Part shown: positions 19,278 to 40,046 of the stretch, piece after piece
Numbering within the stretch: position 1 is the first letter of the stretch
Layout of the letters: each line of letters starts with the position of its first letter
Source: Candidatus Parcubacteria bacterium
GTDB taxonomy: Bacteria; Patescibacteriota; Minisyncoccia; Phycocordibacterales; UBA6065
Length of the DNA: 64,000 bases
Direction: 5' to 3'
NCBI GenBank assembly: GCA_039796155.1
Contig: JBDKKJ010000009.1
Location: 15,077 to 79,076 of the forward strand
Translations under genes and position numbers: made by a program
Notes under the pieces: generated by a model
Told to the model about the DNA's origin: nothing
The model's database searches: none
What the model saw: only the letters and a program-made list of their open reading frames with translations

Positions 19278-22200
19278 TTGAACCAAGCCTTGAAACAAGA
19301 TTTAGGAAATACCTTAGATAATGCGAACCAGTGGCTCTCTATGTCAGAGGCCGCTTCGCTTACGCCATACTCGGCTGAGTATCTTTCCTTGCTTGCCCGA
19401 AAGAAAAAACTAACTGCAAAGAAGGTTGGAAAAACATGGTATACCACCCGAGGTATTGTGGATGAGTACATGAAGCGCCAGATGATCCGAAACCAGATTC
19501 AGAATGGGAATCTTGCTTCTATCGAGGATATCGCTTCTGCAAGTGTTTCTACAAAGGCGGCGCTTGATAAGACTGAGGAGGTTCGTATGACCGAGATGAC
19601 ACACTCAGATCTCTTTGCAAATCCTGCAATTGAGATTCTTCCTGAAGCTCCATCTCTTGTCACATCTGCTGAACCTAAGGTTTTCCCGGTAGAAGATCAT
19701 CCTCTTACCAAGAAGGTACGTACATTCCACGGTGACCTGAAGTCATACCTCGATGCGTTGCACGGAATCAAGGAATCTGTTGTCCCCGTAGTGAAACCTG
19801 TAATCAAGCCCGTTGCTGAAACCAAAGTTGAGGATGGTCACATTGGCCCACGGCTTTCATTCGCTGATGTATTTGCCCGTGCAAAGCTACACACACGCAA
19901 ACTTACTGACCTTGAAGATGTAGTAACACAAAAGCAAACAACTGAACCCGTTATACGAGATATCCCTGTTGCGCCAAAGATTGGTCCACAAATTCAGGTA
20001 GAAGCTCCAAAACCTGTTGTAGCAGTACAGCCACAGATTATTCCTGCGGCTCCTGTCGTACCACAGAACCTGAATCTTTCATCTATTGAAAAGACTCTTG
20101 CTGACATTTCAAAGAAGCTCGAAGCAATTTCTGAGGCAAAGGTACAGGCAACCGCTCCATCAAAAGACGCTTCTTTGGACTTTATAAACGCACTCGACAA
20201 GAAATTTGCTTCTATTGGTGTTGCTCCTGCACGAAAAAATATCCTTTCACGATCAGTTGCAACGGTGTTCGGTCACAAGGCTATTGCCTTTACGACAATG
20301 GCGGCCATTATTTTCTTTACACTTTTCCCAACACCATTCGTTCACGGCTTCTTTGACAAGGCATACGGTACTGTAAAGAAGGCACTTGGTAGCGCTTCAA
20401 CAGTTATGGGCTTTAGACCAGGAACTCATGAGAATGAGGTTCTTCTACTTGATAAGGAAGGAAATATCTCAATCATGGGTCACATCGAGACCGATGGTCA
20501 GTTCCGTTCATACGCAAAGGACGGTATCGCACCTATAGTTGTAGATTCAAAAACTATGGTTAAGAACCTCAATGCAGAAATGGTCGGAGGTGCACGTGCT
20601 CAGGACTTTACACTCGCGTACGTTACCAAGAATGGAAATATCACCACAGAAGATGTTTTCTTTGATAGCAACGTGGAGGTTGGTAAAACTCTTTTGGTTA
20701 AAGGTGCTACAAAACTTCTCGATAGCGTTTCTGTTGATGGAAATCTCGCGGTGTTCGGTGATGCAAAGTTTGCAAAGTCACTTACCGTAGAGGGTCCTGC
20801 ATATTTCGAAGCAATTATTAATACTAAAGGAATCAAGTCTACCGGTGTTGCAGCGCTCGGTTCAATTACGTCTACAGGAAATGTATCTTTTGGAAAAAAT
20901 GCATATGTTCGTGGATCACTCGAGGTTGGTGCTGCGGTGGTAGCACGACAAGGAATCTTCCAGAGCGGAGGATACTCTGGAGATTTTTCTGCAAATGGAG
21001 AAATTGCACTTGGAAACAATTCAGATGTTCTCACCATTGATTCAAAAAATGTTTCTATCGATAAAGCTGGAAATGCTTCATTCGACGGATCACTTGCGGT
21101 TGCAGGTGATATCACATTAGGTGGAACATTATATGGAAACGACGTTACTCTTGGTGGTTCAACAACAATTTCAAATCTTATTGTTTCTGGCACAACAACA
21201 CTCACAACAATAATTGCTGGTGACGCTTCAACAACTAACGCCACATCAACAAACTTCTTTGCATCAGTTGGTCACATAGTAAATGGTGTTATAGATTCTC
21301 TCACTTCAACATTCGCATCAATTACTACATTGGTTGCAAACGACATTACTGTAGGTGCACTTACTGCGACAAACACAACTGCTGTAAATTCAACAACAAC
21401 CAACGCGACCTCAACTAATCTCTTTGCAACAAATGCAGTTATTGGAAATAGCACAACAACTAACGCGGTCATTGCGAATTCAACAACAACCAACGCGGTA
21501 CTTACCAATGCAACAACTACTAACTCATATATAGAGAGTGGTGTAACAGTGAATGCAACAAGTACAAATCAGTATGCATATAATCTTTCTGCTGATTCAG
21601 CGGCAATCATTAGCGCTGCAATCACAAACCTCAGTGCGGCTACAGGTACTATCGCAAACCTTGCATCAACGAATGCAACACTCGTCAATGCGACAACCAC
21701 ATATTCGACGACCACTAATGCATTCATTGCGAACCTCAATGCAGCGAACGGCACTGTTTCAAACCTCAACTTTGTAAACGCGACAGGTTCAGCAGCTACA
21801 ACTACTTCACTCTATTCAATCGTATTAAAGACGATGTTTGGATCAATCGATACATTTACATCGATGCTCGCTGACATTTCAAACCTCACTGTCACAAACA
21901 GCACAACTACAAACGCAACATCAACAAATTCATTTGCATCAACATCAACTTCAATCAATAGCTCTTCGATTAATGCTTCAACTACAAACCTTTCATTTGT
22001 TAACGCAATAGGAACAAATGCTACAACGACAAACCTTTTCGCGGATACAGCTTCTTCTACCAACTTATTTGCGACAAATGGAGCTGTAGGGAATTTGAAT
22101 GCAAATAGTGCAAACGTTGGATTCGGTACTACAACAAACGCTACTTCAACAAATCTCTTTGTTTCAAACGCAAATATAACAACTGGTACTATTGCAAACC

Positions 22201-40046: not shown

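Follow-up and report, generated by a model that had tools for sequence, protein, structure and literature searches.

The 64-kb window analysed here, from a Paceibacteria bacterium belonging to the candidate phyla radiation (CPR), contains a gene of 6,922 codons plus stop, read in a single plus-strand frame from a TTG start (19278..40046). We conclude that its product is probably a trimeric adhesion fibre, oriented N-in/C-out, matured by an S74 chaperone and placed under dedicated transcriptional control. The original prediction, made from the sequence and a list of open reading frames (ORFs), had proposed a chromosomal, cell-anchored fibre of 6,922 aa in eight parts that reuses a phage tail-fibre toolkit. 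The ORF listing and the translation confirm the frame, all eight parts are present, and the reading as a cell-anchored fibre is upheld by the genomic context, the single membrane anchor, the similarity to phage tail-fibre families and an S74 match above threshold. Missing from that prediction were a second, gp12-like chaperone-like domain ahead of S74, the large family to which the gene belongs (with members up to 7,920 aa), an upstream palindrome and a MerR-like partner gene. The palindrome, CCGATA-N3-5-TATCGG, and the divergent partner gene are new here.

Fibre modules of the MAT and phage tail-fibre type

By sequence, the fibre body belongs to the superfamily of mosaic adhesive trimer (MAT) fibres and phage tail fibres. 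A motif search delineates 34 modules (aa 1250-6560; 23025..38957, plus strand), each closed by a capping loop, GNVGIGTxxPxxKLxV. The G.VGIGT motif occurs in 34 copies with a median spacing of 137 aa, and 32 of them have the full ..P..KL.V form. The several dozen modules described earlier are represented by these 34 capping-loop motifs; the E[RK] motif thought to close each of them, in the form E[RK]MRI, precedes only 10. Compared with the PHROG library, the modules match tail-fibre families 9942 and 18345 (best 2e-44), and the body is 27-34% identical to fibres of cyanophages and pelagiphages. Its best solved relatives are the MAT fibres of Bdellovibrio: a single-sequence search retrieved 8ond at 1.4e-8, while a profile of the C-terminal family matched 8ond (1e-15), 8oml (5e-10), 8ojn (9e-8) and 8ol4 (3e-7) in the PDB, 8on4 being a further MAT-fibre match. 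Library matches run from aa ~2,500 to the end of the protein. Searches of this kind on tiles of the protein against Pfam and the PDB had been proposed as a check, and they found support for S74 and for the fibre repeats.

Three repeat regions lie along the body. The Thr/Asn-rich region (aa ~640-1980; 21195..25217, plus strand) contains the predicted TTTNATSTN quasi-repeats, which follow a strict 5-residue period (..TTTNA..) with an Asn at each fifth residue (..TN[AL]xx..), together with 15/17-residue STTS.DYW repeats; its autocorrelation peaks at 5, 10, 15, 35 and 32, and alignment shows the region in homologues too. The Asn-every-fifth pattern recalls pentapeptide-repeat beta-helices. Two NTAVGY-repeat blocks are found as predicted, at aa 3351-3638 (29328..30193, plus strand) and aa 5701-5989 (36378..37244, plus strand), the second of which matches PHROG 23837, 'virion structural protein', at 9e-14; their period by autocorrelation is ~17 residues and not the 14-16 first read. 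Finally, the stretch thought to resemble YadA-head/Hep_Hag repeats does so: S.A.G..A.A.G repeats of period 14 at aa 6020-6160 (37335..37757, plus strand) score 24 bits with Pfam YadA_head, below the cut-off of 25, and match the heads of trimeric autotransporters in the PDB (3wp8, 3s6l, 7o23, 1p9h) with E values of 1e-4 to 9e-3.

Two chaperone-like domains precede the C-terminal tail

The first of two domains towards the C-terminus is a beta domain resembling the C-terminal part of phi29 gp12 and phage cement proteins (aa ~6398-6540; 38469..38897, plus strand; DVAENY at aa 6401), modelled by AlphaFold2 (AF2) with a predicted local distance difference test (pLDDT) score >90. Foldseek places 3gqh, the phi29 gp12 C-terminal fragment, at the top (7e-5, probability 1.0), followed by phage cement proteins. 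With Peptidase_G2 (PF11962) the domain scores 18.6-19.9 bits (cut-off 25), 4 of 52 homologues match that family, and a search against PDB sequences returned no match. Because its fold matches 3gqh but its profile score is below threshold, the domain is best described as resembling G2 and not as a member of it; and since phage cement proteins share the fold, it may serve only for trimerisation. DVAENY recalls what we take to be the D-x-A-E motif of G2 domains. Relatives L025 and L080 end in this type of domain, with no S74 motif seen by eye.

A Peptidase_S74 intramolecular chaperone with its 58-residue helix follows (38994..39377, plus strand), as predicted, and passes the PF13884 cut-off of 22 with 29.0 and 29.7 bits. 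The catalytic pair lies within S6573-T-R-D-A-K6578, Ser6573 being encoded at 38994-38996 and Lys6578 at 39009-39011; in aligned homologues the Ser is kept in 47/50 and the Lys in 44/50. The residue after the Ser is Thr here, as opposed to the Asp of the canonical SDxxxK of MATs and endosialidase, and relatives L032, L079, L035 and L026 have the canonical form SDxRLK. PF13884 also matches 39 of the 52 C-terminal homologues (best 1e-23). The S74 region matches the ICA domain of MyRF (7dc3) both by fold (9e-4) and by profile (2e-3), and is 31-39% identical to Bacillus phage tail fibres. By analogy with endosialidase and Bd3182, the chain would trimerise from its C-terminus and cleave itself at Ser6573.

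Beyond the chaperone (39465..40043, plus strand), the translation reads a small two-Cys beta domain (..GAC), a stretch of Gly/Ser/Thr and, last, a (PEPT)n tail. The coiled coil, stretch and tail listed earlier are therefore all present, the coiled coil as the 58-residue helix. The Cys-domain motif and P/T/S/E-rich tails recur in relatives, and the C-terminal cassette has more than 690 relatives, mostly Patescibacteria, many of which are named 'tail fiber domain-containing protein'.

The N-terminal module: predicted winged helix, linker, membrane anchor and base domain

At the opposite end of the protein is a predicted winged helix-turn-helix (HTH; aa 19-75; 19332..19502, plus strand), and the earlier assignment of an HTH is favoured by the family and by the model. 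The window protein itself scores 17-23.4 bits with Pfam HTH_17 (aa 19-68), below the cut-off of 27; 34 of 38 HTH segments of the family match at E <=0.01, the best at 1e-8. The AF2 model (pLDDT >90) has the order strand-helix-helix-strand-strand-helix, i.e. a winged-helix topology. The nearest folds retrieved by Foldseek are the RdfS excisionase, BldC, RacA and GlnR, all at a non-significant E >0.1, and an HTH profile searched against PDB sequences gave no match. Over the 56 residues of the segment, Y19, L20, K33 and W38 are invariant in 38 sequences and 8 further columns are nearly so.

The HTH is joined to the membrane anchor by the predicted Pro/Val-rich linker (aa 76-333; 19503..20276, plus strand), which is charged, modelled with pLDDT <50 and variable in length, with large indels among homologues. 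The anchor is the sole transmembrane (TM) segment (aa 334-356; 20277..20345, plus strand), seen in the hydropathy profile and as a helix in the AF2 model. Prediction of a single hydrophobic anchor holds for the whole protein, in which the highest-scoring Kyte-Doolittle windows of 19 residues are all located at aa 327-341 and form the only strong hydrophobic peak. Composition changes across the anchor, charged residues falling from 21-25% before it to 5-10% after it, where the chain becomes Thr/Ser/Asn/Gly-rich. From this change, and from the nature of the domains on either side, the HTH and linker would be cytoplasmic and the chain N-in/C-out.

Directly beyond the membrane lies what we call the base domain (aa 375-470; 20400..20687, plus strand), which contains the motifs GHIETxGQ and DFTLAFVTKNGN and is near-invariant in the family: 12 aligned sequences share 51 invariant columns, most of them within aa 378-470. 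No Pfam, PHROG or PDB match was found for it. The stalk then appears to start as a Bactofilin-like beta-helix (aa 468-562; 20679..20963, plus strand), with 20.6 bits in Pfam Bactofilin (cut-off 27.9), and relatives P0008 and P0195 give the same sub-threshold match.

A large family of giant fibres in Parcubacteria

The N-terminal module, i.e. HTH, variable linker, one TM helix and near-invariant base domain, occurs in 107 GTDB species genomes and, judged from sequence, marks out a large and so far uncharacterised family of MAT-like fibres in Parcubacteria. The 80 loci retrieved all come from Parcubacteria-type or generically labelled Patescibacteria metagenome-assembled genomes, bar one labelled Omnitrophota. 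An exhaustive profile search gave 8,716 matches at E <=1e-3 and 262 cluster representatives at <=1e-30. Full-length members reach 7,920 aa, the next being 6,605, 6,480 and 6,452 aa, and the largest have in common the HTH, the base domain, between 20 and 41 capping loops and P/T-rich tails. In several of them S74 lies ~350 residues before the C-terminus; P0182 and P0177, the two largest, have none according to a motif scan. The relatives hence supply the size variants for which a comparative check had been suggested, from 897 to 7,920 aa. Fibre genes were located at 62 loci, at 52 of which they run off the contig, the complete ones encoding 897-3,537 aa. Because such genes usually break metagenome assemblies in this way, they are systematically under-reported.

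Searches started from the middle of the fibre retrieved relatives with other N-termini. A divergent HTH class (..DYIGxLCRxGKI..GRxW.V) followed by a TM helix begins L104, L090, L100, L099, L106 and L138; the 3,187-aa ORF of L141 (Ga0114930_10000273) has two tandem HTH domains before its membrane segment; and L111, L143 and L121 begin with ordinary signal peptides. Different anchors on the same fibre body are the hallmark of a mosaic family.

An invariant palindrome and a MerR-like partner gene upstream of the fibre gene

Immediately upstream of the fibre gene is a palindrome, GTACCCGATAC-GAT-GTATCGGATAC, with the core CCGATA-N5-TATCGG (19250..19274), whose 11-nt arms are 91% complementary and which ends 3 nt before the TTG start. 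It is the single match in the 64-kb window to a relaxed search for CGATA-N0-9-TATCG. At 48 of 58 related loci and at 15 of 22 further ones, CCGATA-N3-5-TATCGG is found no more than 400 nt upstream of the fibre gene, against a background of 5 relaxed matches in 636 kb. Two additional ATCCGATA half-sites, 24 nt apart, start at 19148 and 19172 (19148..19179), and of the 5 copies of this motif in the window 3 are in the 130-nt region upstream of the fibre gene. The arms of the palindrome do not change between families whose fibres are no more than 30-40% identical. As they never vary, covariation cannot test for an RNA hairpin; their invariance in the face of such divergence argues for sequence-specific recognition by a protein.

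Divergent from the fibre locus is an 88-aa gene of the MerR/HTH_17 type (18119..18385, minus strand; Pfam MerR_1, MerR and HTH_17 as precomputed by the Joint Genome Institute, JGI). At 48/58 related loci the opposite strand carries a homologue no more than 1.5 kb upstream of the fibre gene, and the association extends to distant Yanofskybacteria and to distant lineages without the intervening lepB. We regard the palindrome as a candidate operator that such a protein may bind. The fibre HTH and the MerR-like protein show no significant pairwise similarity, and we do not call them paralogues. The 68 nt that separate the MerR-like gene from lepB also contain a perfect 16-bp palindrome, GTATACTATAGTATAC (18401-18416); it was considered as a conserved MerR-like operator and rejected, for only L008, the closest relative, shares it, L018 and L019 have a similar one, and it is not family-wide. 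The boundaries of the transcription unit, as we read them, are a TATAAT at 19225 and hairpins after lepB and after the fibre stop, none of which was flagged by scans for consensus promoters and terminators.

Two proteins could thus in principle recognise the palindrome. An unlikely possibility is that the fibre itself is a one-polypeptide transmembrane regulator, with adhesion only half of its function: its HTH would bind the palindrome at its own gene, alone, with or in competition with the MerR-like protein, so that fibre number, assembly, load or host contact would be read into transcription, or, in a variant, so that the gene would be tethered to the membrane while the chain is exported co-translationally. 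Conservation is far higher in the HTH than in the linker next to it, the HTH appears to be of a winged-helix type known in DNA-binding proteins, the palindrome stays invariant where the fibres do not, and the overall topology is that of ToxR/CadC-type regulators and of MyRF, i.e. an N-terminal domain of DNA-binding type, one TM helix and, outside the cytoplasm, a large remaining part. ToxR-type regulators are membrane-tethered with this same topology. MyRF, in addition, combines its DNA-binding domain and TM helix with a capping loop and an S74-type ICA domain, the last of which is matched here by fold and profile. At one locus, L099, the MerR-like gene is kept (57% identical) while the fibre has an HTH of the other class and the CCGATA palindrome is absent; being a single case, this gives a hint, not evidence, as to which HTH binds. 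On the other hand, the small conserved MerR-like protein is the simpler candidate binder, the HTH profile has no solved relative by sequence and its fold matches are non-significant, and the HTH is of HTH_17/MerR type, not of the OmpR or Ndt80 type found in ToxR/CadC and MyRF. Moreover, S74 is on the outside and ~6,200 residues away from the membrane, and its cleavage, unlike that in MyRF, cannot therefore release the HTH. Were this possibility true, HTH-TM-fibre proteins would be a CPR-wide class of contact-coupled regulators.

A model for the fibre and its comparison with known systems

We return to the adhesion fibre under dedicated transcriptional control and propose the following model. 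The TM helix at aa 334-356 would anchor the chain, leaving the HTH and charged linker in the cytoplasm, and the near-invariant base domain would sit at the membrane and cell wall. The ~6,000 extracellular residues would form, by homology, a trimeric beta-rich fibre of phage-tail-fibre-type modules with capping loops, interspersed with YadA-head-like rolls and Thr/Asn-rich segments. Folding and trimer registration would be driven from the C-terminus by the gp12-like domain and the S74 chaperone, the latter probably cutting at Ser6573 and releasing the last ~350 residues. The mature fibre would project from the cell and bind surface structures of a host or partner cell, and its expression may be controlled through the palindrome, bound by the divergent MerR-like protein, the fibre HTH or both.

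The closest parallel is provided by the MAT fibres of Bdellovibrio (Bd2133, Bd1334, Bd2439, Bd3182; Caulton et al. 2024), which are surface-displayed, trimeric and glycan-binding (PMC10769870). According to the same paper, MATs span 417-1,915 aa, all 21 of those in B. bacteriovorus have a signal peptide and a conserved ~130-aa beta-rich N-terminal domain, and the authors' survey table contains no Patescibacteria (PMC10769870). The fibre described here resembles them in its significant sequence similarity to the solved fibres, in a capping-loop motif equal to the consensus published for MATs and MyRF, NVGIGTxxPxxKL (Supplementary Fig. 18 of PMC10769870), in the S74 C-terminal chaperone that many MATs have, in a mosaic architecture with a conserved cell-proximal and a variable distal end, and in being encoded on the chromosome of a bacterium that lives on other cells. 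It differs in length, its 6,922 aa being 3.6x the longest MAT in the authors' list, and in anchoring. Whereas MATs belong to diderms and carry a signal peptide and N-domain, the protein here has an HTH, linker, TM helix and base domain of its own; CPR bacteria are generally monoderm. Since its N-terminus consists of the HTH, a 260-residue linker and the TM helix at 334-356, there is no N-terminal signal peptide. The second chaperone-like domain, the long tail after S74, the palindrome and the MerR-like partner are likewise undescribed for MATs.

Among phages, the S74-containing fibres and tailspikes (endosialidase K1F, T5 pb1; PF13884) share the Ser-x4-Lys S74 domain, which follows a capping loop where a beta-helical fibre ends, the PHROG tail-fibre families and, for cyanophage, pelagiphage and Bacillus phage fibres, 27-39% identity. 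In contrast to them, the protein here has its own TM anchor instead of baseplate docking, is 5-10x longer, continues for ~220 further residues after the chaperone helix, and is encoded with no phage genes within 64 kb. Phi29 gp12 (Peptidase_G2, 3gqh) is the best structural match of aa ~6400-6540, the difference being that the domain is internal here and followed by S74, with its G2 profile score below threshold. Trimeric autotransporters (YadA, BpaC, Hep_Hag) are alike in only one short segment, the 14-residue head-type repeats of aa 6020-6160. Identity with them was ruled out: the C-terminus consists of S74 and a P/T-rich tail with no beta-barrel anchor, no protein tile matches YadA_anchor in Pfam, and there is presumably no outer membrane.

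By analogy with MATs, and with the host-dependent lifestyle of CPR bacteria (PMC11665869, PMC8080830), the fibre would bind the surface of a host or partner cell and is probably used to grab such cells. Homology to the prey-recognition fibres of Bdellovibrio strengthens this assignment. Several observations count against the model as a whole. Some 1,300 Thr/Asn-rich residues have no Pfam, PHROG or PDB match; the base domain is of low confidence in the AF2 monomer model of aa 1-640, which is confident only for the HTH and helices; the protein lacks the signal peptide and N-terminal domain of the Bdellovibrio MATs; one assembly alone covers the middle 16.5 kb of the gene; and 25 of the 52 C-terminal homologues carry a Bact_surface_Ig-like domain (PF16403) after S74, which is odd for a fragment that is to be discarded. 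HYR domains lie downstream of S74 in 7/52.

Quite improbable, in our view, is that the fibres are no specific adhesin but make up a non-specific fibrous coat or a spacer in the manner of an S-layer or glycocalyx. There are published descriptions of CPR cells with fibrous surfaces and giant membrane proteins (Vampirococcus, PMC8080830), and a protein as long, repetitive and low in charge as this one would suit such a scaffold. The kinship is to receptor-binding fibres, however, and a mosaic, module-swapping architecture and a length that ranges from 897 to 7,920 aa among relatives fit recognition better.

Earlier work mentions giant surface proteins of CPR bacteria in a general way (PMC8080830); a literature search for CPR fibres with S74 or MAT features returned nothing specific, and no description of this architecture or of the palindrome/MerR-like unit. 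The family extends the Bdellovibrio MAT and phage-fibre toolkit to a CPR phylum with a different anchoring solution. To our knowledge, how the ultra-small CPR/Patescibacteria recognise and hold their hosts is largely unknown beyond the type IV pili of Saccharibacteria; members of the family are the obvious ones to consider for host recognition, and host range might be predicted from their modular tips. The invariant palindrome, the small MerR-like protein and the HTH fused to the fibre together make a concrete regulatory unit.

Start codon and integrity of the fibre gene

The JGI gene call on the source contig, Ga0451722_0000032 (142.9 kb), begins at the ATG of codon 22 and gives a protein of 6,901 aa. 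The TTG at 19278 is the better start because homologues in the alignment begin with 'MN..' 15-40 residues ahead of the HTH and because the HTH_17 match and the first AF2-modelled strand both start at residue 19. The GC content within the gene is 0.42-0.52, higher in the Gly/Ala-rich 3' half, and the antisense ORFs listed within it have no support.

Comparison of the gene with itself at the DNA level reveals two long repeats, one of 871 nt and 85% identity, which pairs the two NTAVGY blocks (aa 3351-3638 and 5701-5989), and one of 482 nt and 95% identity (aa 988-1147 and 1585-1744). It found no exact repeat of 100 nt or more, which makes repeat collapse unlikely. In Logan assemblies of other runs, contigs carry identical upstream genes and the first 861 called codons and end at ~21924, where there is a 53-nt near-repeat; others start at 38466 and show 100% identity from there to the 3' end and across the downstream genes. 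Contigs of several runs break at exactly one or the other of these points within the gene. No repeat is found at 38466, which is the boundary of the gp12-like domain (aa ~6397), and this break could reflect strain-level variation or an exchange of cassettes upstream of the conserved C-terminal cassette. Both ends of the gene are therefore reproduced in independent assemblies at 100% identity. The 6,901-aa protein has no exact entry in a collection of 15 billion sequences. A metagenome scan with a mid-gene segment, in a collection that does not include the source contig, gave only relatives of <=57% identity. A metagenome relative has an open frame of at least 5,334 codons that continues past both ends of its contig.

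That the 20.8-kb ORF is a chimera, in which the repeats of several shorter genes were joined during assembly, is extremely improbable: the two internal repeats, the breaks in the k-mer-based Logan assemblies, the missing exact protein and the middle covered by no independent contig would fit such an artefact, but there is no long exact repeat, the frame stays open across all joins, both ends were recovered in other samples, and independently assembled relatives (5,013-7,920 aa) keep the same order of parts.

Organism and neighbouring genes

The nearest genomes are Candidatus Paceibacterota, in agreement with the reduced-genome bacterium first supposed, and the flanking proteins are 81-95% identical to theirs; in L008, the values are 87% for RmuC, 89% for L21, 81% for the type I signal peptidase (SPase I) and 95% for the MerR-like protein. 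Upstream of the fibre gene lie clpP, mreB/C, genes for penicillin-binding proteins, greA, aspS, mraZ/rsmH, murE, rmuC, rplU and lepB, and downstream gap, rpiB, rpe, tkt, a histidine kinase gene, recR, dnaB, cysS, corA, rplI and rpmA. No virion, baseplate, sheath, terminase or integrase gene was found within the 64-kb window, the 40-odd neighbours all being cellular. The context of the fibre gene is chromosomal, and is not that of a prophage or of a phage-tail-like particle locus.

The view that the flanks are housekeeping genes free of phage genes is correct as regards phage genes and needs amending downstream, where the immediate neighbours are surface proteins. Four LamG_3 (concanavalin-like) proteins are encoded directly 3' of the fibre gene (40393-44670), and a type-IV-pilin-like gene (GFTLIELLVV) follows after the gene gap (45769-46278), so that the neighbourhood is partly a surface-protein cluster; the LamG_3/pilin-like region has the look of a second cluster for surface or adhesion functions. 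LamG matches also lie near the fibre genes of L010, L015, L029 and L085.

The gene between the MerR-like gene and the fibre gene, lepB (18454..18984, plus strand), encodes a type I signal peptidase of family S26 (Pfam Peptidase_S26, 3e-32). SPase I is directly upstream on the same strand in 17/58 relatives, a weaker link than that of the MerR-like gene. Cleavage of the fibre by SPase I after the TM helix was considered and rejected, since the family has no conserved A-x-A-type site and the two genes are adjacent at so few loci.

An Rfam scan of the window found one RNA gene, tRNA-Glu (CUC), at 10800-10872. At 13059-13685 (minus strand), an ORF of ~200 aa encodes an ATP-cone and, after it, a match to the ribonucleotide reductase small chain that covers no more than its first 69 of 281 positions, an odd short fusion.

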